From an uncultured Caulobacterales bacterium (GTDB taxonomy: Bacteria > Pseudomonadota > Alphaproteobacteria > Caulobacterales > Caulobacteraceae): 64,000 nt of DNA. The position numbers and the translations under genes are program-made. Location: contig CAIMFV010000006.1 in the NCBI GenBank assembly GCA_903840435.1, forward strand, positions 22,415-86,414. Reading direction: 5' to 3'. Of this stretch, positions 9,463 to 52,038 are shown in pieces (the first letter of the stretch is position 1; each line of letters starts with the position of its first letter). The notes beneath the pieces are model-generated. The model worked only from the letters and a program-made list of their open reading frames with translations, did not search any database and was not told the DNA's origin.

Positions 9463-12400
9463 TCGTCCCCCTCATCGCTGGCCCATTCCTTCAGTCGCGC
9501 CAGATGGTCATAGTCGCTCGGCGTCTTGAGAAACTGCATGGCCGTTCGCGACGTATAAGGCGCCTCGCGCTGGTCGAATTCGGCAACCTTTTTTTGCAGG
9601 CCCGCCAAGGCTTCCTCAGCAAGGCTTGTGGCGGTGGCGTCATCCTTGTCGCGACGCACCACTTTTCCGGGTGGGTCTCTGCCGGTCAAGCGAACATAGT
9701 CGAGGTGGCCTGGGGTTGCGCCCTTGATCCTGTCAAAGCCATCGGCCTGGACGATGGCGGCGGTGAGCGACAACTGGGGTGAAAAACCGGATTTGATCTG
9801 CGCAAAGGTGGGCTCCTGACCGGTCTTGAAATCGATGATGTCGGCGCGCCCCTCCTTGACCTCGATCCGGTCGGCCCGTGCTGTGACGGTAAACTTCCCC
9901 CCCGGCGCGGCGAAGGTCAGACGGCCTGTGCATTCTACGTCTACCCGAACGCCCATCCCACGGCGCTGGCGCTCGAAGTCGCTTATCCACGCGCCGATCT
10001 GACGCCCTAGCGCCGCTTCTCGCACCAAATCGACGTCGGGCGCCCCGGCCGCCTTCAAGGCGTCGAGATAGAGGGTGGTGAAGTGCAGTTCGGCGTCGGC
10101 CCCCGGCCAGGGCCAGCCCTTGGCGAAGCTTTCCGTTGCCGCGTGGATGGCGGTGCCGCGCACGCGATTGTCAAACGCCCGGTCGGGTCTGTCGAGGGCG
10201 CGTAGCCGCAGAATATAGCGGGCATAAACTGCATAGGGGTCGCGGGTCCAGGTTTCGACAGCCGTGACGGGCAGTTCGCGCGGGCGGACGCCAACCGGCG
10301 GCGTTGGCTCAGGCCGCCGCGCTGGTTCCAGGGCGGCAGGAGCCGTCTCCAGCGCACGATCAAGCTCGGCCTGGGCCGCCATCAGATCGGGTCGCGTGGA
10401 CAGGCCGATTTTGGCACCGCGCGCCAAGGTCTCGAGCCGCCACAGCCATCGCGACTTGACAGCGGGCGCACCGTCACGCCGCTCGCGGGTTATCAGCAGC
10501 ACGTCTGGCGCGCACGCGGCCTGGGCGAAGTCGTGGGCGGAGAGGCCGATCTTGCGTTCGGGCGTCGGCAGGTCGAGCGCTTTGCGCATGGCCCGCGACA
10601 GAAACGGGTCAAGACCACCTGGGCGCGGCCAAACGCCTTCTTCCAGTCCAGCCAGAATAACCAAATCCGCCCGGACCATCCGGCCTTCCATGGCGCCGAG
10701 GATACGTAAGCGTGGGTGGGTGGCGCCGCCGACTCGCACGGTCTCTTCGGCAAGCCATTGGTCGAGCAGTCTGGCAAAGGCCTCTGGCCCGCAGGCGGGA
10801 AGCACATGGCCATCGCGTAAAATTGTTGCCACGAGGGCCGCCGCCGATTCGCCTTCTGGGCCCGCCCAAAGCTCGCCGGTCACGCCTTTTTCGTTGACAG
10901 CTAGGATTTCAACCGCCTCGACCAGTTGGCGTATCGCCTCTGGCGCGGCTGCCTTGCCGGCGGCAAAGGCCGAAGCGGCGTGGGCAATGGCGGTGAGCAA
11001 GTTTTCGGCACAGCCAAGCGCGTCTGGGCTACTGGCAAGGCGCGCCCGCAGTTGATCGGCATCGCGGGGGCGAGGGCCCCGCAGGGCCAAGCGCTCGACC
11101 TCGCGGGCCTGCCCGGCCAATGTCAGCTCCGCTGCGCCGAGCCGAGTGAAGCGATGCTTGAGCACGGCTAAGAGCAGCACCGGATTGAGCGGGTCGCAGG
11201 CGGCGCGGGCGACGAGGCTCAATATCACGCCGACGGGAAATTCAGCCAAGGCCCGACCAGCCGAATCGTCGGGCGTAATCCCCCATCGCGAGAGGGTGGC
11301 GCTGACCCTGCGGCTCAAAGCGGCGTCGGGCGTCAAAAGGGCCGCCGTCCGACCGGGGGTTTCAAGCGTCTCCCGCAGGGCAAGCGCGATCAATTCCGCC
11401 GCCACGCGATCATCGCGCGCAGCCATCACCTTCAATCCCGCCAATCCTTCGGCCACAGGATCGACGCCTGCCTTCTCACCCTCGGCACGAAGCCCTGCAA
11501 TGGCGGAGAGCCAATCATCTGTCGCTTCGGCGGGGCGCAAGGCCTCGTTCACCACCTTGCGGCGAGACCGCCCGGCCACGGCTTGCGCCGGGGGCTCATG
11601 GCTTGGCCAGACATTGACTTGCGCTCTCGTGACACCGACCCGCTCAAGCAAGCGTTTCAGCGCCAATTGGGGGTGGGCGTCACCGATTTGGTCCCAGACG
11701 GTCTCGTCGAGGTCCTGATCGAGGCCCGGAAGCACCACCAAACCTTGCGGGGCCGACGCGACCACCTTGAGGAGGGCCGCCGTCGCCGGAGCCGAGCCCG
11801 TTGAACCCGCCGCGATCAGCGGACGCGTCGGCGGGGCAAGCGTCCAGGCCTCGGCCAGAGCGCGCAACAGCCGCGTCCGCCGCTCCATCACATCAATCAG
11901 GCCAAGCGTCCGTAAGCGCTTGGGCCAAAGGTCGACCGCCAAGGCCAAGAGGCGTGAGGTTTTGCGCCAGTGTTCGGCCAGATCTGCCTCGACAAGGCGC
12001 TCTAACCGACCTTCAACTGAGACCTCTTCAATCTGGACGGAATCGAGAAAGCCTCCCAAGGCGTCCGCGAGTTCGAGTGCATGCCCGGTCGAGATGTCGT
12101 GCTGGTCGAGCACATGGGCGTTGTCACAGATCAATCGCGCCAGCTCGAAGCGCCGCCGTAGCGGACTGACGGCGGGGGGGAGATCAAGCGCGAGATCGCC
12201 AGGCTCAAATGGCGGCTCTCCGTCTTCTAAATCACCCAGAGCGCGAATTTGTGGCAGCAGGGTCGCCTGCCCGCCTGAGGCGGTGACGAAAGCCTCGGTC
12301 AGGGCGCGCATGCCACGACGGGTCGGGGTGAGCACAATAGCGTCCGACAGGGCCTCGGGCCCGATGGGCAACAGCGCGTCGACCAGGCCTTGCGCCAAAT

Positions 12401-14385: not shown

Positions 14386-14909
14386 TTGGCCGTCCCTTTG
14401 TCGATAAAACTCAGCCGGTCCTGCCATGCTCCAAAACCGGTAGCGACTAAGAGGCGCGCCGACGACTCATGGGCGTCATCATCTTTTCGCGTCTCTGAGG
14501 CAAATTCTAGCTCCAGCCGTGTCGCAGGGGCCAAATCACCCAAGCGCTCGGGCCATTCAATCAGCGTCACCGCATGGTGGAAGGCGTCTTCAATATCGAG
14601 CTCATAGACGTCTTCGGCGTCAGACAGACGATAGAGGTCGAGGTGCCAGAGATCAAATTGCGGGGTCGGGTAGGTTTGAACCAGGGTAAAGGTCGGGCTG
14701 GGGGCTTCTTCCTCGGGCGTGGTCAAGGCGCGGATGACCGCCCGGGCAAAGGTGGATTTGCCCGCGCCGAGCGCGCCGCGCAGAAAGACAACGTCGCCAA
14801 CCTGCAATACCAAAGCGAGGCGGTGTGCCAGACTTTCGGTCTCGGAGCGGTCTTCCAACCGCAGTCGTTGAATTTTGGCCGCGTTCGTCATGGACGAAGC
14901 CTTTTTCAT
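14382..14909 (-). CDS. tsaE: tRNA threonylcarbamoyladenosine biosynthesis ATPase TsaE
   Basis: GALGAGKSTF P-loop, about 160-175 aa, typical YjeE/TsaE. Confidence 0.8.
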   Translation of the reverse strand: MKKASSMTNAAKIQRLRLEDRSETESLAHRLALVLQVGDVVFLRGALGAGKSTFARAVIRALTTPEEEAPSPTFTLVQTYPTPQFDLWHLDLYRLSDAEDVYELDIEDAFHHAVTLIEWPERLGDLAPATRLELEFASETRKDDDAHESSARLLVATGFGAWQDRLSFIDKGTAK

Positions 14910-14977
14910 GGGCTATCGGCCCTTAGCAAGTGAAACTCGACGCGCATGTCGACTGAGATGCTGCCAGGGGGAAATTC

Positions 14978-16225
14978 TTGATCCAGACCAGTGGCCGGAT
15001 CGTCATTGTTGGAGCAGGGCACGCCGGGGGAACGGTGGCGGCCTTGCTGCGCCAATATGGCTGGCAGGGGCCGATCACTCTGCTGGGCGACGAGCCGATA
15101 GCCCCCTATCAGAGGCCGCCCTTGTCCAAGGCGTGGCTGAAGGGAGAGGCAGATGCGGAGAGCTTGGCGCTCAAGCCGCTAAGCTTTTACGCCGAGGCGG
15201 GAATTGACCTGCGTCTAGACACCCAGGCGACCTCGGCCGATGCCAACCAAAAGGTCGTCGCACTCGCCTCTGGCGAACAGATCGGGTTTGACCATCTCAT
15301 TCTCGCCACCGGCGCCGCTGCGCGCAAACTGCCGATTGCGGGCGGCGATCTGCGGGGCGTGCTTAGCCTGCGCACAGCCGCCGATGCCGAAGCGCTCAAG
15401 GCCGCCCTTGGCCCCGGGAAAACCCTTGCCGTGGTGGGCGGGGGCTATGTGGGTCTCGAAGCGGCGGCGTCAGCCCGTGCTTTGGGGGCTGAGGTGGTGG
15501 TGATCGAGCGGGAGGCGCGCATCCTCGCCCGGGTGGCGGGCGCTGTCCTGTCTGACTTTTTTCAATCCTATCACGCGGCGCGCGGCGTGACCTTTATCTG
15601 TGCGGCAGGCGTTGAGGCCTTTGAGGGAGTTGGCGACCAGTTTGCTGGCGTCCGATTGGCTGATGGGCGTTTGATCGCCGCTGACGCGGCTCTCGTCGGT
15701 GTTGGCGCCTCGCCTAACATCGGCTTGGCCCGTCAAATGGGGTGCGCCTGCGGCCAAGGGGTGATTATCGATTTGAACGCCATGACCAGTGTGGCGGATG
15801 TCTATGCGATCGGCGATTGTACCGAAAGGCCCTTGCCGCTCTACGGCGTTCAGGGGCGCTTGGAGAGCGTGCCCAATGCCCTGGAGCAGGCCAAACAGGC
15901 CGCAGCCCATCTGTGCGGACGCCCAGCACCGGCGCCCGAAGCCCCGTGGTTTTGGTCAGATCAGTATGACCTGAAGCTCCAAATTGCCGGACTTCCCCTG
16001 CACGCGGTGCGGGCGGTGATGCGCGGCGCGCCCCCGGAAAATCCCATGGACCCGGCAAGGTTTGCAATTTTCCATTTGGACGCCGAAAATCACGTCCAAG
16101 CGGTCGAGGCCATCAATGCGCCAGCAGAATTTATGATGGGCCGCCAAGTTTTGAGCTCGCGCAAGGCCGTTTCGCCTGAAAAACTCGCCGATATGTCAAT
16201 CTCTATGAAGGAGGTCGCAGTCTAA
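14978..16225 (+). CDS. FAD-dependent NAD(P)H:ferredoxin oxidoreductase (putidaredoxin/rubredoxin reductase family)
   Basis: IVIVGAGHAGG and VVGGGYVGLE dinucleotide-binding motifs; immediately followed by 2Fe-2S ferredoxin. Confidence 0.8.
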   Translation: MIQTSGRIVIVGAGHAGGTVAALLRQYGWQGPITLLGDEPIAPYQRPPLSKAWLKGEADAESLALKPLSFYAEAGIDLRLDTQATSADANQKVVALASGEQIGFDHLILATGAAARKLPIAGGDLRGVLSLRTAADAEALKAALGPGKTLAVVGGGYVGLEAAASARALGAEVVVIEREARILARVAGAVLSDFFQSYHAARGVTFICAAGVEAFEGVGDQFAGVRLADGRLIAADAALVGVGASPNIGLARQMGCACGQGVIIDLNAMTSVADVYAIGDCTERPLPLYGVQGRLESVPNALEQAKQAAAHLCGRPAPAPEAPWFWSDQYDLKLQIAGLPLHAVRAVMRGAPPENPMDPARFAIFHLDAENHVQAVEAINAPAEFMMGRQVLSSRKAVSPEKLADMSISMKEVAV

Positions 16226-43406: not shown

Positions 43407-44417
43407 TCAGCCCTTGGGGCGTCGCTTGTGTGGCTCACCCCGTTCGCGCGCTTCGGAGAGCAAAGGCTGATTGTCGAAAGTATAGCGCAGCAAGGTCGCC
43501 TGTTCGATATTGACCAGGATTCGACAGGCTGTGGCCGCTTCCTCCGGCGTTGGCGTCGGCCCAAAGGCGGCGGCAAGTTTCGGTGTATAGTTGTCGCATT
43601 GAGCACGCCGGTAGCGCACGAAGGCGGGCCCGCTCTGACGGAATTCGCGTTCTGCAATATCGACAAGGTTTTGGGCTTCATCCCAGTCGTCGAGCACCCG
43701 CCTTACCCGGCGTTTGGCGCTGGCGAGCCGCGCAAGACTAAGCTGCTCCTGGCGCTGCAAACGAGCTGATCGATCCTCGCTCGTGCCAACCCTCCGCCAG
43801 ATATCCACCAAACGATAGGGGCCGCGCGGGTCGTCGCGCCCTGACTTCACACGCATGGGAGCCATGCCGACGGTTTCACGCAGCATCGAGCGCCTGCGCA
43901 GGTCCATCCAAAATTGACAGGCCCAGACCGATCGCTCGATATGCCATCGGTTTCCGACAGCCGAATAACTCAGCCGGTCACAATTGGCGTTGCGAAGTCT
44001 CTCATAGGCTCGGCTGGCCCACATATCGGAACGCGCCAGGGCGTTGCGGGCCGGTAGGCTTGATGGCTGCGATTGGGCCAAGGACAAGATGGCGCGATTG
44101 ACGCGATCCAAATTTGGCGAAAAGTGCTGCTGAATCTCAAACAGGCATTTATCGATCCCAACCTCTGACAAAATTGGGCAACCCTTGACGTCCTCTAAAA
44201 TATCATAAGACTCTTTGTATAGAAATGGAGATTCCTTCATCAGATTTAGGCGTAATTCTTGACCATACAGTTTTGAAATTGGGAAAAAGGCGGCAAAAAT
44301 CGACAATAAAGCAAAGGTAATATTTGATTTATTTCTGATATGAGGCTGTAAAATTCTTGCATTGATCTGATTATATCCGAATATAATTCGTTCGATTGCC
44401 AGCTGTGTCGCCTTCAT
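43407..44417 (-). CDS. Family A paralog 0: secreted double Cys-pair DUF1311/LprI-like protein (candidate immunity/lysozyme-inhibitor-like)
   Basis: Start placed at MKATQ (ATG 44417); hydrophobic N-terminal anchor; C-terminal half about 80-90% identical to other A copies (AFVRYRRAQCDNYTPKLAAA..ACRILVNIEQATLLRY). Confidence 0.7.
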   Translation of the reverse strand: MKATQLAIERIIFGYNQINARILQPHIRNKSNITFALLSIFAAFFPISKLYGQELRLNLMKESPFLYKESYDILEDVKGCPILSEVGIDKCLFEIQQHFSPNLDRVNRAILSLAQSQPSSLPARNALARSDMWASRAYERLRNANCDRLSYSAVGNRWHIERSVWACQFWMDLRRRSMLRETVGMAPMRVKSGRDDPRGPYRLVDIWRRVGTSEDRSARLQRQEQLSLARLASAKRRVRRVLDDWDEAQNLVDIAEREFRQSGPAFVRYRRAQCDNYTPKLAAAFGPTPTPEEAATACRILVNIEQATLLRYTFDNQPLLSEARERGEPHKRRPKG

Positions 44418-44554
44418 TTTGTTGGCGAGGGGCGTGTCAGACGATCCAGTCGATTGGCGAGCGTTATTGCTCTTGCGGGCAGACTTGCCCTCTATGCTCG
44501 CAAGCGCGTCCGGCTGAAACCACCGCCGCCGACGGGGCGACTTTTGCCCCTCTT

Positions 44555-45484
44555 TCATCGCCTGTCGCCTCGGCTGTGACCCGGACCGCGATGGGATTGC
44601 GACATCAAGGTATGGTTGTCGAAAAAGAAGCGTAACAAGGTCGCCTCCTCGACATTGAGGAGGGTGCGGCACGCAATCGCCGCCGCCTCGGGGCTTGGCC
44701 CAAAGGCAAGGGCGGCGGCAAGTTTTGGCGTATAGTCCTCGCATTGCGCCTTACGGTAATGAAGAAAGGCTGGGCCACTACGATGAAAATCGCGCGCCGC
44801 CTTATCTACAAAATCTTGGTACTCGTCCCAGTCGTCCAGCACGCGTTGAACGCGAAGCTTGGCGCGCTGCAAACGTTGGAGGCTCAAAACTTCTTGGAAT
44901 CTCAAATTTTCCAATTGGTCCGGACCCGTTCCAACTGTGTACCACAGGTCCGCTAGGCGATAAGGACCGCGCGGCCGGTTGCGCCCAGGCCTGATCGGCA
45001 GCGGCGCATCCCCAACCGCTTCACGCAGGAGCGAGCGCCGGCGCAGGTCCAACCAAAATTGACACGCCCAGATGGATCGGGACGCGCGCCAGCGACTTCC
45101 GACGGCGGAATAACTCAGACGGTTACACGTGTCGTAACGGAAGTTTCGGTAGGCCTGGCCTGCCTTTTGTGCAGCGGACGATAAGGCGAGCTGGAGGGAA
45201 GCATCGCTTTGCTTGCTCAACGCATTGGCGAGGGTCCGTCGTTCGACCTTGTCGCGCATGGGCGAAAAATGCTGCGCAAGTTTGAGCAGGCATTGATCAA
45301 TGCCAACCTCGGAAAACGCGGGGCATCCCTGTACATCCGCCAGAACATCACCCGGCTCCAGGTACAGAAAGCGAACGTCTTCGCGTGATGATAGATGGAA
45401 TTTGAATGTAGTCGCGTGACAAATTGGCGAAAAGGAAGAAAATATCCATAAAATTATGAGAGTTATGTACAGGTATTTTTTCAT
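44555..45484 (-). CDS. Family A paralog 1: secreted DUF1311/LprI-like protein
   Basis: Signal peptide MKKYLYITLIILWIFSSFSPICHA encoded by AT-rich DNA; 4-bp overlap with family B gene upstream. Confidence 0.75.
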   Translation of the reverse strand: MKKYLYITLIILWIFSSFSPICHATTFKFHLSSREDVRFLYLEPGDVLADVQGCPAFSEVGIDQCLLKLAQHFSPMRDKVERRTLANALSKQSDASLQLALSSAAQKAGQAYRNFRYDTCNRLSYSAVGSRWRASRSIWACQFWLDLRRRSLLREAVGDAPLPIRPGRNRPRGPYRLADLWYTVGTGPDQLENLRFQEVLSLQRLQRAKLRVQRVLDDWDEYQDFVDKAARDFHRSGPAFLHYRKAQCEDYTPKLAAALAFGPSPEAAAIACRTLLNVEEATLLRFFFDNHTLMSQSHRGPGHSRGDRR

Positions 45485-46245
45485 GGATACAATCGAATAT
45501 AATCAAGTATATATTGAATTTTTTCTGGATAATGTGTTAGTGTTTTTGTATTATATTTTTGTTGTAACAAATATTTATCTATATTTTTCCAGCTCAAAAT
45601 CACCCGTTCGACCCTCGCCTTTTGCACCTTCACCCTTTGGTGCGGGCGCAGAAGGGATGATCCATTCAGTCGGCGGAGGTGATCGGTGGTGCTGCCATAG
45701 ATTTTGGCGATTTTATCGAGCGTGTCGCCTTTGGCAGCCTCGACTTCAAATATTGGCGCGCCCGGTGCAATGACGGTGCGCATATCCGACTGCGAGGCTA
45801 TGGAAAGGACGTATCCTATGCCCGCGCGAATATTGTCCTGCGGATTGGAGGAGGCGCGGGCTGCTAAGCCGTTTTGCCATTGTGGGGGGATGATCACCGT
45901 ACCAGCGCCCTCGGGTTTGAGGAGGTCGCGCAAGCCCCCGTCGCCCGAATTACCGATATGCATGGGGCGGCTGTTCCACGTGACGTCTCCCGGGTCGTTT
46001 TCCGTCCACATCATCGCCTTCATCAGGGCGAAATCTGGCGAGCGATAGCCCGCGACGCCGCGCAGATTTCGGTCGTACTCGCCGATGGCGCTGCGAATGG
46101 CGCTCTCGTGATCGTGCCAATGCGGTCCTGGTACAAATGTGTCTGTACCGTCCATCCATCCGGACAGCCCGTCTGAAATATTAGACGGGCGTGCAGGGCG
46201 TTGCACTTTTAAGTTGGCGCGATGTTTCAGCGTTGTTTCGACCAT
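45481..46245 (-). CDS. Family B copy 2: SLT-type lytic transglycosylase-like domain + C-terminal LysM; no signal peptide (candidate peptidoglycan-degrading effector)
   Basis: LMKAMMWTENDPGD...RPMHIGNSGD...QDNIRAGIGYVL resembles SLT motifs (AIAWQESxFNP / GLMQI / ENIRAGxxYL); VEAAKGDTLDKIAKIYGSTTDHLRRLNGSS = LysM. Confidence 0.75.
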   Translation of the reverse strand: MVETTLKHRANLKVQRPARPSNISDGLSGWMDGTDTFVPGPHWHDHESAIRSAIGEYDRNLRGVAGYRSPDFALMKAMMWTENDPGDVTWNSRPMHIGNSGDGGLRDLLKPEGAGTVIIPPQWQNGLAARASSNPQDNIRAGIGYVLSIASQSDMRTVIAPGAPIFEVEAAKGDTLDKIAKIYGSTTDHLRRLNGSSLLRPHQRVKVQKARVERVILSWKNIDKYLLQQKYNTKTLTHYPEKIQYILDYIRLYP

Positions 46246-46332
46246 GGGAGCTCCAGATTTTACGGAGCGCGCGACGCAAATCTGCAGTCAAGCGCGGGAA
46301 ACCCTAACCGTTAGCCTGACTTGCGACGGTCT

Positions 46333-46354
46333 CGCGACGTGACACGTCGTCGCG
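46333..46354. repeat. Conserved palindrome CGCGACGTGACACGTCGTCGCG (stem CGCGACG/CGTCGCG) 3' of family A gene, 5' of family B gene
   Basis: Near-identical copies at 47445-47466 and 48814-48835; related palindromes at about 50122-50134 and 51950-51962. Confidence 0.6.
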
Positions 46355-46363
46355 CATGTAGGT

Positions 46364-47284
46364 CTACCGGCGGCTGCGCGTGTCGCCGGGCTTGCGGTCT
46401 TGCGACATCAAGGGTTGGTCCTGGAAGTCGTAGCGCAGCAAGGTCGCCTCTTCGATATTGACCAAGATACGACAGGCCATGGCGGCCTCGTCCGGCATTG
46501 GCGTCGGTCCAAAGGCGGCGGCGAGTTTCGGGGTATAGTCGTCGCATTGAGCATGGCGGTAGCGCATAAAGGCGGGCCCGCTCTGACGGAAGTCGCGTTC
46601 TGCAATGTCGACAAGGTGTTGGGCTTCATCCCAGTCGTCCAGCACCCGTCTTACCCGGCGTTTGGCGCTGGCGAGCCGCGCAAGACTAAGCTGCTCCTGG
46701 CGCTGCAAACGGGCCAGTCGATCCTCACCCGTCCCGACCCTCCGCCAAATATCTACCAAGCGATAGGGGCCATGTGGTCCGAAACGCTTCGCCTTCACCC
46801 GCAGGGGGGCCTCGCCCACAGTTTCTCGAAGCAAGGATCGGCGATGCAGGTCCATCCAGAATTGGCAGGCTAAAATCTCTCGGATCGTATGCATCCGATT
46901 TCCGACGGCCGAATGACCCAAGCGATTGCAATTGATAAATCGAAGCCTGTCATAGGTCATCGCGGCACGGTGATCTGAGCGGGAAAGGGCGGCGTGATCG
47001 GCCGGACTTAATCCTCGTATTTGCGCCTTTGACAGCACCGCCCTCTCGGTATGCTTGAGGCTGAGAGAAAAGTGCTGCTGAATTTCGGCCAGACATGCAT
47101 CAATCCCAGTTCCAGAGAAGCTAGGGCAATCACGGACATCGTCAAGCACGTCAAAAGATTCTACATAAAGAAAGGGAGATTCGGTTGCAGATTTTACACT
47201 GAAACTGGATGTCATTGCGCGCGACGAAGGGCAATAACAAAGGATAATACATAAAATAATTTGGATTTTTTGGTAAATGTTCAC
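46364..47284 (-). CDS. Family A paralog 2: secreted DUF1311/LprI-like protein
   Basis: Signal peptide MNIYQKIQIILCIILCYCPSSRA; conserved C-terminal half. Confidence 0.75.
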   Translation of the reverse strand: MNIYQKIQIILCIILCYCPSSRAMTSSFSVKSATESPFLYVESFDVLDDVRDCPSFSGTGIDACLAEIQQHFSLSLKHTERAVLSKAQIRGLSPADHAALSRSDHRAAMTYDRLRFINCNRLGHSAVGNRMHTIREILACQFWMDLHRRSLLRETVGEAPLRVKAKRFGPHGPYRLVDIWRRVGTGEDRLARLQRQEQLSLARLASAKRRVRRVLDDWDEAQHLVDIAERDFRQSGPAFMRYRHAQCDDYTPKLAAAFGPTPMPDEAAMACRILVNIEEATLLRYDFQDQPLMSQDRKPGDTRSRR

Positions 47285-47444
47285 GGACTAAATTTCACAA
47301 GCTTGCCAAGGTGTTTCTGGCCCATGTCAAGGTGTTTCTGGCCCATGTGTCGTTTTTCCCTCCATCCATGGGGCAATTCGGTTGAAATAATGTGAGGAGG
47401 GAACGAGGGAGTTTGCGAGCAGCAAACATGGTCGAGTTTGGTCT

Positions 47445-47466
47445 CGCCACGTGACACGTCGTCGCG
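47445..47466. repeat. Copy of conserved palindrome (CGCCACGTGACACGTCGTCGCG) downstream of family A paralog 3
   Basis: Sequence identity to 46333-46354 motif. Confidence 0.6.
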
Positions 47467-47475
47467 CAGCTTGGT

Positions 47476-48495
47476 TTAGCGCCGGTTGCGACTTTCACCG
47501 GGCTTGCGGTCTTGCGACATCAGGGGTTGGTGCGCGAAATCGTAGCGCAGCAGGGTCGCCTGTTCGATATTGACCAGGACGCGGCAGGCTGTGGCGGCTT
47601 CCTCCGGCGTTGGTGTCGGCCCAAGGGCGGCGGCGAGTTTCGGGGTATAGTCGTCGCATTGGGCGTGGCGGTAGCGCACGAAGGCCGGCCCGCTCTGACG
47701 GAAGTCGCGGTCGGCAATATCGACAAAATCTTGCCATTCCTCCCAATCGTCGAGCACGCGGCGGACCCGTCGCCGGGCGCTGGCCAATCGCCTCAGGCTG
47801 GCGGCTTCCTGGGATTTCAATTTCGATAATCGACCCGCTCCCGCGCCCGCGAGGCGCCAGATATCGGTCAAGCGATAGGGGCCGTGCGGACCGCCGTGGC
47901 CCGGCTTGATCCGCATCGGCGCCTCACCGGCCGTTTCTTGCAGCAGCGACCGCCGATGCAGGTCCATCCAAAATTGGCAGGCATAAACCCGCCTCAGCGT
48001 ATGCATCGTCGCGCCAGCCGCTGCGTGGCTCAGGCGATCACAATTGCTGTTCCGAAGCGCAAAATAGCTTGAAACGGCTTGCTTCTGAGACAGAAGGAGG
48101 GCGTCTTGCCCGCCAGTCCCGGTTGCACTTTGGGTGGCGCGACCCAGCACCTCTGAATCGACACGGATCAACCGTCCCGCAAGCCGTTGTTGGATTTCTT
48201 CAAAGCAAGCGTCATAATCGGTTTCAGAATATATTCCGCAACCCGTGACGTCGTTAATGACATCCCATGGTTCCCTATAGATAAATGGTGAATGGTAAAG
48301 GGCAGTCATATTTGGATGCCAGAGCTCTACATGCTTAGACAAAGAGATCGAATGGCAACACACTGAAATAATAATTATGGAAAAATATATTAGACTATGG
48401 ATATATTTTAATGTAATCGAGAATATATTGCAATTTTGCCGCGTAATCAACATCTGGATTCCCATTATAGTTTGATTGGAGGGAATTTTTATCAA
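47476..48495 (-). CDS. Family A paralog 3: secreted DUF1311/LprI-like protein (start uncertain; ORF overlaps remnant B gene by about 100 nt)
   Basis: Hydrophobic N-terminal region IYFSIIIISVCCHS; C-terminal half almost identical to paralog 4. Confidence 0.7.
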   Translation of the reverse strand: MIKIPSNQTIMGIQMLITRQNCNIFSITLKYIHSLIYFSIIIISVCCHSISLSKHVELWHPNMTALYHSPFIYREPWDVINDVTGCGIYSETDYDACFEEIQQRLAGRLIRVDSEVLGRATQSATGTGGQDALLLSQKQAVSSYFALRNSNCDRLSHAAAGATMHTLRRVYACQFWMDLHRRSLLQETAGEAPMRIKPGHGGPHGPYRLTDIWRLAGAGAGRLSKLKSQEAASLRRLASARRRVRRVLDDWEEWQDFVDIADRDFRQSGPAFVRYRHAQCDDYTPKLAAALGPTPTPEEAATACRVLVNIEQATLLRYDFAHQPLMSQDRKPGESRNRR

Positions 48496-48772
48496 TTGGT
48501 CTCCAGCCGAATATAACTCTCATAACTTTCGCCTTCTGCACTTTCACCTTTTGATGAGGGCGTAGAGCGGACGAGCCATTAAGTCGCCTTAAGTGATCGG
48601 TCGTGCTGCCATAGTGTCGGGCGATGGCGTCAAGTGCGTCACCTTTCGCCGCCTCGATCTCACAAATGCGCGTGCAGGGCGTTGCACTTTTAAGTTGGCG
48701 CGTCGTTTCAGCGTTGTTTCGACCAAGGGAGCTCCAGATTTTACGGAGCGCGCGACGCAAATCTGTAGTCAA
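48395..48772 (-). pseudogene. 5'-truncated family B remnant retaining only the LysM/C-terminal part
   Basis: EAAKGDALDAIARHYGSTTDHLRRLNGSS...QYILDYIKIYP matches C-terminal 100 aa of intact B copies; SLT part missing; conserved B 5' leader still present at 48748-48797. Confidence 0.6.
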
Positions 48773-48813
48773 GCGCGGGAAACCCTAACCATTAGCCTAG
48801 CTTGCAATAGTCT

Positions 48814-48835
48814 CGCCACGTGACATTGCGTCGCG
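48814..48835. repeat. Copy of conserved palindrome (CGCCACGTGACATTGCGTCGCG) downstream of family A paralog 4
   Basis: Sequence similarity to 46333-46354 motif. Confidence 0.55.
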
Positions 48836-48844
48836 CTCCATCGA

Positions 48845-49762
48845 CTACCTCCGGTTGCGACTTTCACCGGGCTTGCGCTCTCGCGACATCAGGGGTTGAT
48901 CCTCGAAGTCGTAGCGCAGCAAGGTCGCCTGTTCGATATTGACCAGGATGCGACAGGCTGTGGCGGCTTCCTCCGGCGTTGGCGTCGGCCCAAGGGCGGC
49001 AGTGAGTTTCGGGGTATAGTCGTCGCATTGAGCGCGCCGGTAACGCACAAAGGCGGGCCCGCTCTGACGGAAGTCGCGGTCGGCAATATCGACAAAATCT
49101 TGCCATTCGTCCCAATCGTCGAGCACGCGGCGGACCCGTCGTCGGGCGCTGGCTAATCGCCTCAGGCTGGTGGCTTCCTGGGATTTCAATTTCGATAATC
49201 GATCCGCTCCCGCGCCCGCGAGGCGCCAGATGTCGGTCAAGCGATAGGGGCCGTGCGGACCGCCGCGGCCCGGCTTGATCTGCATGGGCGCCTTACCAGC
49301 CGTTTCTTGCAGCAGCGACCGCCGATGCAGGTCCATCCAAAATTGGCAGGCGTGAACCTGCCTCAGCCTATGCATGGTTCCGCCAGCCGCTGCGTGGCTC
49401 AGCCGATCACAATTGATCAATCTTAGCTGCTTATAGGCGCGGGCCGCCCGCCTTCCAGACAAGATGAGAGCCGTCGTTGCGGAAAGGTCGGTTAGCCGCG
49501 TCTGCGCCTTCGACAGTATCGCTTGATCAAGGCGGCCCAATTTCGGTTCAAAACGGTGTTGAATTGCAATGAAGCATCTGTCTATGCCAGCTTCAGAATA
49601 GGATGGGCAACCTTCAATATCATTTAATATATCGTAGTATTCTCTGTATAAAAAGGGCGACTCTCGCAAAAAATTGAGACGGAGCTCCGGATTATGGGCG
49701 TCAACTGGGGAAAAATGGGAAAATGATATAAATATAAATAGAATAAAAATTGCAAATTTCAT
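48845..49762 (-). CDS. Family A paralog 4: secreted DUF1311/LprI-like protein
   Basis: Signal peptide MKFAIFILFIFISFSHFSPVDA; C-terminal half near-identical to paralog 3. Confidence 0.75.
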   Translation of the reverse strand: MKFAIFILFIFISFSHFSPVDAHNPELRLNFLRESPFLYREYYDILNDIEGCPSYSEAGIDRCFIAIQHRFEPKLGRLDQAILSKAQTRLTDLSATTALILSGRRAARAYKQLRLINCDRLSHAAAGGTMHRLRQVHACQFWMDLHRRSLLQETAGKAPMQIKPGRGGPHGPYRLTDIWRLAGAGADRLSKLKSQEATSLRRLASARRRVRRVLDDWDEWQDFVDIADRDFRQSGPAFVRYRRAQCDDYTPKLTAALGPTPTPEEAATACRILVNIEQATLLRYDFEDQPLMSRERKPGESRNRR

Positions 49763-50167
49763 GGGTAAAATCCGAGATGTTCAAGTTAATATTTCCATAT
49801 TCATCTAGATGTGACGCTATGCGCCCTTAAGTGATGTCTGGGGTGGAGCGGGGACGTTCCATTGAATGCCCGGCGAGGGGCGGCGGTGCTGCCATGGGTT
49901 TGGCTGATCCCATCCGAGGTATCCCCGAGACCTCCCGCCCCAGTGCCTTTGGGCCTAGTGGTTAAGGGCGCGAGGGGCAATTGGTCGATACTTTTGCCAA
50001 GCGAGTCGGGGATCACGGGTAAAGATGCCGCCCCTCTTAGATCGCCAGCCGTGCTGAGGCCTTCCAACAGCTTGGGGGAAGATATCTGAACCTCCATGGA
50101 CCATCGTTCGTCCAGATGACATGACGTCGCGTCACTCAAATTCCGAAGGTCGTCGAGCGGGCGGAGG
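49763..50167 (-). pseudogene. Highly decayed family B remnant (no intact reading frame)
   Basis: Nucleotide similarity to B LysM region (ggtgctgccatgggtttggctga vs ggtgctgccatagattttggcga of intact copy) but frameshifted; occupies the position where a B gene precedes each A gene. Confidence 0.4.
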
Positions 50168-51145
50168 TTATCCGTTTTGACGTCGTGAGTGTCCCTCGCC
50201 GCGCTTGCGCGCCTCAGAAAGCAGGGGTTGTCCGTCAAACGTGTAGCGCAGCAGGGTCGCCTCTTCGATATTGACCAGGATGCGACACGCCATGGCCGCT
50301 TCCCTCGGCGTCGGCCCCCTGCCAAGAGCGGCGGCAAGTTTTGGTGTGTAGTCGTCGCATTGGGCCTGACGGTAGCGCGCCAGGGCGGGCCAGCTTTGCC
50401 GGACGTCCTTCTCTGTGAGTTCAAAATATTTTTGCATCTCATCCCAGTCGTCCAGCACCCGCCTCACCCGCCGTTTGGCGCGCGCGAGCCGCGCGAGGCT
50501 GAGCCGTTCTTGAGCCTGTAAACGGGTCAATCGGTCGTCGCCCGAACCGGCGCGCCGCCAAATGTCCGCCAAGCGGTAGGGGCCGTGCGGGCCGTTACGC
50601 CTGGGCTTTACCCGCATGGGGGGCTCGCCATCCGTTTCTCGCAGCAGAGACCGTCGATGTAGGTCCATCCAAAATTGGCAGGCCCAAACCCCGCGCAGGG
50701 TATGCATTCTGCCGCCGTTTGATGAGCGTTGGAGATGATCACAATTTATCTGGCGTAGGTGAAGATAGGCCAGGGAGGCGCTTTGTTTTGCCTTTGACAG
50801 GATGTCTAGGGATGCTTTTTCGCCTGCCTCAGAGGCGGCGTTAGCGAAAACCTCTGCATCGACCTGGTTCAACTTGTCGGAAAGATGTTGGACAATCTCC
50901 TCAAAACAGGCATCGAGATCGCCTTCAGAATAAATTCCACATCCCGGTACATCATCAATTACGTCGTCCGGCTCTTGATAGAGAAATTTCGATTCATCTA
51001 ATAATTTAAAATCAGGGTGCCACAAGGCAATATGTTTCGCCCAAGCTGGACTCTGATACATAAATAAAAAACAAAGACAAAACAAAACGCCGATTTTAAG
51101 GGTATATTTTAATGTAATCAAGTATATATTGAACTTTTTCTTCAT
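50168..51145 (-). CDS. Family A paralog 5: secreted DUF1311/LprI-like protein; start overlaps 3' end of family B copy 1 by about 50 nt in another frame
   Basis: Signal peptide KIGVLFCLCFLFMYQSPAWA; conserved C-terminal half. Confidence 0.75.
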   Translation of the reverse strand: MKKKFNIYLITLKYTLKIGVLFCLCFLFMYQSPAWAKHIALWHPDFKLLDESKFLYQEPDDVIDDVPGCGIYSEGDLDACFEEIVQHLSDKLNQVDAEVFANAASEAGEKASLDILSKAKQSASLAYLHLRQINCDHLQRSSNGGRMHTLRGVWACQFWMDLHRRSLLRETDGEPPMRVKPRRNGPHGPYRLADIWRRAGSGDDRLTRLQAQERLSLARLARAKRRVRRVLDDWDEMQKYFELTEKDVRQSWPALARYRQAQCDDYTPKLAAALGRGPTPREAAMACRILVNIEEATLLRYTFDGQPLLSEARKRGEGHSRRQNG

Positions 51146-51860
51146 AGTGCGCTCCTGCTTTTCGATTGTATTTATCTTTCAAGAGTTTTTTATCAATTGT
51201 GTCCCAGCCGAATATCACTCTCATAACTTTCGCCTTCTGCACTTTCACCTTTTGATGAGGGCGTAGAGCGGACGATCCATTTAGTCGCCTTAAGTGATCT
51301 GTCGTGCTGCCATAGTGTCGGGCGATGGCGTCAAGTGTGTCACCTTTCGCGGCCTCGATCTCAAATATGGGTGCACCTGGCTCCACAACCGTCCTGAGGT
51401 CCGACTGCGAGGCCACGACAAGGACATAGCCAATCGCTGCGCGAATGTTATCCTGCGGGTTCGAAGTGGCACTCGCGGATAACCGTTCCTGCCACTGAGC
51501 TGGGACGATGATCTTTCCCGCTCCGTTTGGCCTGAGAACGTCGCGCAAGCCGGGATCACCGGAATTACCAATTTGCATGGGCCGTCTGTTCCAACTCGGA
51601 TCGCCGGGGTCGTTTTCCGCCCAAATTATGGCTTTCATCAACGAAAAGTCGGGGGAGCGATATCCCGCGACGCCGCGCAGATTTCGATCATAGTCTTTGA
51701 TGGTCGTCCGAATCTCACTTTCATAATCCCGCCAGTGCGGTCCGGGAACGTTTCTATCAACGCCGTCCATCCACTTCGCCAAACCCGGCGGAACATTGGC
51801 CGAGCGCACGGGTCGTTGCACCTTGGGTTTTGCAGGATGTTTAACCGCTGTTTCGGCCAT
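51096..51860 (-). CDS. Family B copy 1: SLT-type lytic transglycosylase-like + LysM protein, no signal peptide; first gene of the array
   Basis: Start placed at MAETAVKHPAKPKVQRP (ATG 51860) matching start of copy 2; ORF-track extension to 52214 would overlap SRP RNA and is rejected. Confidence 0.75.
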   Translation of the reverse strand: MAETAVKHPAKPKVQRPVRSANVPPGLAKWMDGVDRNVPGPHWRDYESEIRTTIKDYDRNLRGVAGYRSPDFSLMKAIIWAENDPGDPSWNRRPMQIGNSGDPGLRDVLRPNGAGKIIVPAQWQERLSASATSNPQDNIRAAIGYVLVVASQSDLRTVVEPGAPIFEIEAAKGDTLDAIARHYGSTTDHLRRLNGSSALRPHQKVKVQKAKVMRVIFGWDTIDKKLLKDKYNRKAGAHYEEKVQYILDYIKIYP

Positions 51861-52038
51861 TGGGGCTCCAGAGCTCATGGAGCGCGCGGCGCAATTTTGC
51901 GACCCCGCGCACGAAACCCTAATTTCTAGCCTCCCTCGCATCGCCCTTGCCATGTGACATGGCGTCGCGGCGCGGTGGTGATGGCGCGGGATGCGAGCGC
52001 TTACGGCCCTTGCTAAGCGCAGGCTTGCGCGCGATATA

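Follow-up and report, generated by a model that had tools for sequence, protein, structure and literature searches.

How would a protein with the features of a peptidoglycan-cleaving enzyme, made without a signal peptide, come to meet a cell wall, and whose wall would it cut? This question is raised by a gene referred to here as B2, located at 45481-46245 on the reverse strand of a 64-kb window (the whole stretch of DNA that was examined, from a Caulobacteraceae metagenome-assembled genome, MAG; all coordinates are window positions). The open reading frame (ORF) starts with ATG and encodes a 27-kDa product of 254 aa. A preliminary description of the locus had assigned to this product a lytic transglycosylase motif with a catalytic Glu and a C-terminal LysM domain, and had taken the lack of a signal peptide to imply either a dedicated export system or release by lysis. 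The ORF and every quoted peptide were confirmed (LMKAMMWTENDPGD at residues 74-87, RPMHIGNSGD at 93-102, QDNIRAGIGYVL at 136-147 and GDTLDKIAKIYGSTTDHLRRLNGSS at 173-197), and the alternative residues given for the motifs, (I/I), (A) and (Q), were found in the second intact paralogue, B1. The reading favoured here, with some reserve, is that B2 is an antibacterial peptidoglycan glycosidase with delivery of the T6SS (type VI secretion system) kind, blocked by the products of a neighbouring set of genes (family A).

Homologues of B2 were aligned (89 sequences, 21-76% identity). E82, D102 and Y239 were invariant in this alignment, and K76, A77, W90, Q96, I97, G98, N138, Y145, Y231, N232 and K242 were conserved in at least 90% of the members. 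Comparison of the family alignment with E. coli MltE in hhalign gave a probability of 81.7% (E = 1.1e-5); catalytic E64 of MltE was paired with E82 and its NISMG segment with NIRAG, which places both the Glu of the WxE motif and the ENIRAG-type motif where they had been expected. The proposed pairing of RPM(H/Q)IG with GLMQI fared less well: the peptide is present, but its register is ambiguous, and hhalign set GLMQ of MltE on GD(P/G)GL (residues 101-105) rather than on PM(H/Q)IG. With a three-sequence SLT alignment the probability was not raised but fell to 47%, and the GLMQ register was not fixed by it. The hhalign match to full-length Slt70 was weak (probability 1.7%), with the catalytic Glu still on E82. 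Sub-threshold matches to the Pfam SLT profile (PF01464, gathering score 21.3 bits) were obtained for 25 of the 89 relatives (best E = 5.6e-4; none for B2 itself) and, besides LysM-type families, SLT was the only Pfam family to recur in more than two members. In the AlphaFold2 (AF2) model of B2 the helix 72-82 is terminated by E82, and the helical fold was judged to be lysozyme-like. The comparison with MltE, the conservation and the weak SLT matches therefore support the lysozyme-like assignment and the catalytic Glu. Judged from sequence, the N-terminal part of B2 together with its tail very probably adopts a GH23/SLT-like lysozyme fold with E82 as the general acid; the invariant D102 would leave a hydrolase (goose-lysozyme-like) chemistry possible beside that of a transglycosylase.

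B2 was divided into three parts, all on the reverse strand.
45796-46173 (-): first part of the catalytic domain, residues ~25-150 (alignments, AF2 secondary structure)
45619-45750 (-): LysM domain, residues ~166-209 (PF01476, PDB LysM matches, AF2 model)
45484-45618 (-): residues 210-254, second flanking strand and last part of the catalytic domain (conservation, spliced relatives)

The first part holds the helix that ends in E82 (codon at 46000-46002), the PMHIG and GDGGL motifs and the NIRAGIGYVL helix. The presence of a canonical LysM was borne out by a PF01476 score of 24.5 bits against a cut-off of 20.9 (residues 172-207), a PDB LysM match at E = 2.7e-8 and the superposition of the model LysM on 4uz2/4uz3 with an rmsd of 1.3-1.4 Å (Foldseek); its C-terminal position was not. 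The domain is flanked by strands 151-159 and 210-219 in the AF2 model and is followed by 45 conserved residues (family consensus YNGGGDxxYxxKLxY), which in B2 include two confident model helices carrying the conserved Y231, N232, Y239 and K242. The LysM was excised in silico from ten members and these were rescanned with the SLT profile. The score of P0048 rose from 18.4 to 22.4 bits, above the cut-off, as the matched positions went from 9-80 to 9-104; in P0063 the SLT match (profile positions 60-99) runs across the excision point. Since the splice is bridged by these matches, the tail represents the AYNxG part of the SLT domain, and the LysM is nested, with the NIRAG..YL helix before it and the C-terminal 'YN..Y..K' helices after it.

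The reported absence of a signal peptide was upheld. Within the first 45 residues of B2 no 12-mer scored higher than 0.15 for hydrophobicity (Kyte-Doolittle), and a hydrophobic N-terminus was found in none of the 89 effectors, in 47 of 52 partner proteins encoded next to them and in all six family A proteins.

A word-indexed search returned 12 clusters only; an exhaustive profile search recovered 192 cluster representatives at E<=1e-30 (50%-identity clusters), a few multi-LysM proteins among them being matched via LysM alone. The sole database label of family members is 'LysM domain-containing protein'. The family alignment matched ECs_0214 of E. coli Sakai with a probability of 99.96% (E = 8.9e-39, ~27% identity). 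ECs_0214, which corresponds to Etse4, begins MLWTEND and lies two genes from Hcp1 (ECs_0216); the next gene, ECs_0213, gave a weak LprI match. A phmmer search of Etse4 against B2 gave E = 3e-13, and B2 is by this sequence similarity placed in the already described Etse4 effector family. In enterohaemorrhagic E. coli (EHEC) Etse4 is toxic in the periplasm only and the DUF1311 protein Etsi4 rescues the cells (PMC12981562). The SED_RS06235/06230 module in SPI-19 of Salmonella Dublin contributes to interbacterial competition; SED_RS06235 (290 aa) contains a transglycosylase region found by HHpred and a LysM, and its 146-aa partner SED_RS06230 contains a signal peptide and an LprI domain (PMC8867033). 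Elsewhere, too, proteins of the LprI/DUF1311 type are cited for a role in T6SS immunity (PMC9796082, PMC12135965).

The same pairing recurs across the family. A small PF07007 (LprI) gene was always found downstream of the homologue in Burkholderia ubonensis, Cupriavidus and two metagenome contigs, and an LprI-like ORF lies immediately downstream in 54 of 84 loci, the other flanking genes being unrelated. At the remaining 30 loci, mostly from Variovorax and Acidovorax, the gene downstream lacks this LprI likeness and may represent a different immunity family. The pair has a patchy distribution, and in every genome its neighbours are different ones. Several LprI-like genes in tandem follow a single B homologue at four loci (L068 from Massilia rubra, L044, L027 and L062); immunity arrays thus occur beyond this lineage too.

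In the window, B2 is part of an island of related genes, all on the reverse strand.
43407-44558 (-): A6, family A paralogue, 383-aa gene call
44555-45484 (-): A5, 309 aa, signal peptide and two LprI/DUF1311-like domains, putative cognate immunity protein of B2
46246-46363 (-): leader of B2, ~110 nt, with GGAG 7 nt ahead of the ATG
46364-47284 (-): A4, family A paralogue, 306 aa, GTG start
47476-48453 (-): A3, family A paralogue, 325 aa
48395-48836 (-): B', effector remnant upstream of A3 (tblastn/blastn)
48845-49762 (-): A2, family A paralogue, 305 aa
50168-51145 (-): A1, family A paralogue, 325 aa
51096-51860 (-): B1, second intact effector paralogue, 254 aa, 71% identical to B2, Q96 kept

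The start codon of A5 and the stop codon of B2 overlap as ATGA. Family A proteins, A5 and its five paralogues, are read as Sec-exported; they matched a hidden Markov model of Etsi4-like partners with E values of 1e-13 to 1e-17 and consist of two LprI-like halves by hhalign (E = 3.8e-10 and 1e-5); against PF07007 they score about 11 bits, below the cut-off of 22. The family is known from seven protein clusters only, and dN/dS among its pairs in the island is 0.22-0.48. Six cysteines are invariant in all six paralogues (C54, C65, C120, C141, C248 and C272 in A5), divided four to two between the first and the second LprI-like half, a pattern that would fit disulfide-bonded periplasmic proteins.

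An effector-immunity relationship between B2 and family A is considered likely, and the following course of events would account for it. B2 would be synthesised in the cytoplasm, which offers it no substrate, and a contractile injection machine, most plausibly a T6SS encoded elsewhere in the genome, would place it in the periplasm of neighbouring cells. There the LysM would dock the protein on the sacculus and the enzyme would cut the glycan strands, while the family A proteins would bind and block it in the periplasm of the producer and its kin. The island may have begun as six tandem effector-immunity units; four effectors would since have decayed, and the orphan immunity genes could still guard against the toxins of relatives.

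The dedicated export suggested in the preliminary description fits the homologues that are encoded in T6SS clusters (PMC12981562, PMC8867033). From these homologues, T6SS delivery of B2 is the best-supported route; with no T6SS genes in the window it is an inferred one, and it is put forward tentatively. Hcp and TssA genes also lie near the Buttiauxella homologue (L069). The following results weigh against the favoured reading. On the side of the enzyme, neither B2 nor B1 matched PF01464, whether whole or with the LysM excised, and a Foldseek search of the B2 model against the PDB returned LysM only, probably owing to the split domain and a low-confidence loop (pLDDT is below 50 at residues 98-132). 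A Pfam scan of B2 gave LysM only, an NCBIfam scan matched nothing, and PDB sequence searches (phmmer, hmmsearch) returned LysM matches only; the profile and structure searches by which the assignment was to be checked thus failed when made directly with B2, and it was the comparison of the family with MltE, the SLT matches of relatives and the lysozyme-like helical fold that spoke for it. B2 further deviates at near-invariant sites (S83N, G84D, Q96H and GGGD to TKTL). On the side of delivery, the 64-kb window contained no match to 16 Sakai T6SS proteins, its genes around the island being housekeeping ones, and among about 80-90 related loci, searched for T6SS genes with flanks of ±10 kb, the Buttiauxella locus was the only positive. 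T6SS-dependent secretion is described as undemonstrated for Etse4 and for SED_RS06235 by both papers (PMC12981562, PMC8867033), and T6SS is reported to be rare in aquatic Caulobacter (PMC12700997); the host is placed in Caulobacteraceae by ArgG homologues, and the sample set of its MAG was assumed to be freshwater. Finally, eCIS- and prophage-linked homologues (below) indicate that the domain is not tied to one delivery machine.

Of the alternatives, the most serious, though still unlikely, is that the same enzyme and immunity partners are served by another route: a particle resembling an extracellular contractile injection system (eCIS) or a tailocin, a type I exporter, or lysis of a subpopulation. 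The lack of T6SS genes in the window and their rarity in aquatic Caulobacter would suit it, as would two sets of homologues. Two metagenome contigs (L098, L099) encode B-domain proteins with N-terminal extensions, one of them eCIS_core/DUF4157 (PF13699), next to genes for sheath, tube, Pvc16 and AAA proteins and for further eCIS_core toxins, and these B-domain proteins look like eCIS cargo. In Commensalibacter communis (L096/L097) two B-domain homologues, at 10001-10873 and 14842-15615, lie in the structural module of an E217-like prophage between capsid and tail-terminator genes, which is a hint that the domain may serve as a virion-associated lysin. No LprI partner was found near any of these eCIS- or prophage-linked homologues, however, whereas the window copies share the partner-bearing pattern seen in the T6SS clusters of E. 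coli and Buttiauxella and described for Salmonella (PMC8867033). The window genes examined included none of eCIS or phage type, and B2 has neither an N-terminal eCIS_core domain nor a recognisable type I secretion signal. Efflux-type genes about 10 kb from B2 do lend this route some support and look like a tripartite exporter.
56.2-60.5 kb (from 56217) (+): outer-membrane efflux protein (OEP, 737 aa), an ORF without a Pfam match (233 aa) and a HlyD-family adaptor (442 aa)
60.5-61.5 kb (to 61464) (-): ABC ATPase (325 aa), on the strand opposite to the OEP and HlyD genes
Export of B2 by these genes was considered and rejected, as no link to the island was found. The locus of a homologue from Caulobacter sp. 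(L081, beside gcrA) was uninformative on export. A related and still less probable proposal, for a lineage whose aquatic relatives are reported mostly to lack T6SS, combines an Etse4-like toxin, delivered by a machine newly linked to the family or by altruistic lysis, with a lineage-specific, two-headed immunity protein in which each LprI-like domain answers a different effector variant; if true, this would account for the retention of six diverged copies when two toxins are live.

The remaining explanations do away with the toxin or with its activity, and all are very improbable. B2 could have kept the fold as a catalytically dead peptidoglycan-binding protein: it has Asn in place of the usual Ser/Thr after the catalytic Glu (E-N rather than canonical E-S; 3 of 89 members, B2 included), His at the Q96 position (2 of 89, again with B2) and no GGGD turn, and four sister effector copies have already decayed. 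E82, D102 and Y239 are all kept, however, Etse4 has the same E-N-D sequence and is toxic in the periplasm (PMC12981562), and the B2 ORF is intact and apparently translationally coupled to A5; the dN/dS of 0.12 between B1 and B2 moreover indicates purifying selection. A housekeeping or self-directed wall-remodelling enzyme with family A as its regulators is marginally less probable again. Ordinary housekeeping enzymes such as MltD are LysM-bearing lytic transglycosylases, and the island sits among core genes, with dnaX-ybaB-recR on one side and nudC on the other; but a housekeeping periplasmic enzyme would need a signal peptide or a lipobox, which none of the 89 members has, the gene pair is patchy and changes neighbours from genome to genome, and tandem amplification, effector decay and retention of the partner fit conflict systems and not housekeeping. 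The least probable of all is that B2 is a leftover lysis or virion lysin gene of a prophage or gene-transfer agent, released by lysis only. The prophage setting of the Commensalibacter homologues and weak PHROG 'endolysin' matches to B2 point that way; the matches, though, span the LysM segment only, the genes examined in and around the island included neither phage genes nor a holin or an integrase, and lysis cassettes do not feature a conserved LprI partner that bears a signal peptide. An identity as a phage endolysin was also tried for B2 and set aside on the same LysM-only matches and the want of a lysis-cassette context.

The favoured reading, an injected toxin held in check by family A, also bears on the history of the island, in which further traces of effector genes were detected. 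B' retains the leader and the first ~19 codons, with the start ATG changed to TTG; its catalytic domain (about residues 20-160) has been deleted with a frameshift, and the LysM and tail are kept. A listed 125-aa ORF at 48395-48772 (-) is an accidental frame running from the old B leader into the LysM and tail of B'. A strongly decayed B remnant lies ahead of A2 (49726-49926; tblastn/blastn), and an in-frame decayed remnant of the LysM and tail lies in the 5' extension of A6 (44313-44510; tblastn E = 2.6e-4). Residues 1-80 of the A6 gene call form a hydrophilic extension that precedes a hydrophobic segment; the extension being an in-frame relic of a B C-terminus, the true start of A6 is probably internal. 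Ahead of A4 a relic of the B leader (47440-47468) remains, with no B gene left. From the B remnants before A2 and A3 and in A6 and the leader relic before A4, the island thus looks like six tandem effector-immunity units with two effectors intact, four decayed and four immunity genes orphaned.

A leader of ~110 nt is found upstream of every B copy (46246-46363, 48727-48836 and 51862-51969, besides the relic ahead of A4); the leaders of B' and B1 are 90% and 71% identical, respectively, to that of B2. Within this leader lie a near-palindrome, GCGCGACG..TGTCACGT.GCGAG, and, spaced too widely for a standard sigma-70 promoter, the pair TTGACT...TAAAAT; the leader may be a regulatory element. The 3' tail DNA of B2 is AT-rich (about 25% GC). 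AT-rich patches of 25-39% GC occur in the otherwise ~60% GC island at 44200-44399, 45400-45599, 47200-47399, 48200-48599, 49600-49799 and 51000-51199, each coinciding with a B 3' tail and/or with that end of a family A gene which encodes the signal peptide; they could reflect DNA of foreign origin, joints left between modules by recombination, or selection acting on the coupled starts of translation.

These results provide a structural and mechanistic annotation for a family of ~190 clusters labelled only 'LysM domain-containing protein', and they correct the published architecture, in that the LysM is nested in a split SLT-like domain and is not a C-terminal appendage. The orphan 'LysM + LprI' pairs of Burkholderiales and other Proteobacteria (the 54 loci above) are tied by them to an experimentally supported toxin-immunity pair. 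The window illustrates the amplification of such modules and their decay into orphan immunity arrays, and does not represent a new kind of system.

Among known enzymes, the family 1 lytic transglycosylases (MltE, Slt70, MltF and MltD) share with B2 the Glu that ends a helix and the N-I-x-x-G-x-x-Y-L and A-Y-N-x-G-like motifs, and MltD also combines SLT with LysM. The LysM domains of MltD sit C-terminal to its SLT domain. B2 differs from family 1 in the absence of a signal peptide or lipobox, the nested LysM, the sub-threshold Pfam scores and the invariant D102, which is not required in family 1. The effector-immunity pairs Tse3/Tge1-Tsi3 and Tge2-Tgi2 (PDB entries 4luq and 4kt3) have no detectable sequence similarity to B2; Tse3/Tge1 and Tge2 are not known to carry LysM, and their immunity proteins have not been described as LprI/DUF1311. 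Among the LprI/DUF1311 inhibitors (PF07007; M. tuberculosis LprI; P. putida PP0307, PDB entry 3gi7), family A is set apart as a tandem of two LprI-like domains, and LprI inhibits host lysozyme rather than a bacterial toxin, unlike the role proposed here.

The nearest counterparts are found among interbacterial effectors. The architecture of SED_RS06235/SED_RS06230 (SeD_A1215) and of SEN1001 of S. Enteritidis is that of B2/A5, the homology being drawn from this architecture and from the E. coli relative; the LysM is called C-terminal and the effector an 'amidase' in that work (PMC8867033), neither of which is supported by the family data. Etse4/Etsi4 resembles the B2/A5 pair in its WTEND catalytic motif, the nested LysM, the YNGGGD tail (seen in the family), the lack of a signal peptide and the LprI/DUF1311 gene with a signal peptide that follows. 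Etse4 lies inside a T6SS cluster and is split by a nonsense mutation in EHEC, whereas no T6SS genes accompany the window copies within the 64 kb. The 149-aa Etsi4 carries a single LprI domain, in contrast to the two LprI-like ones in about 305 aa of family A, which is present in six copies; the duplicated-domain (double-LprI) immunity protein in a decaying array is what is unusual here.

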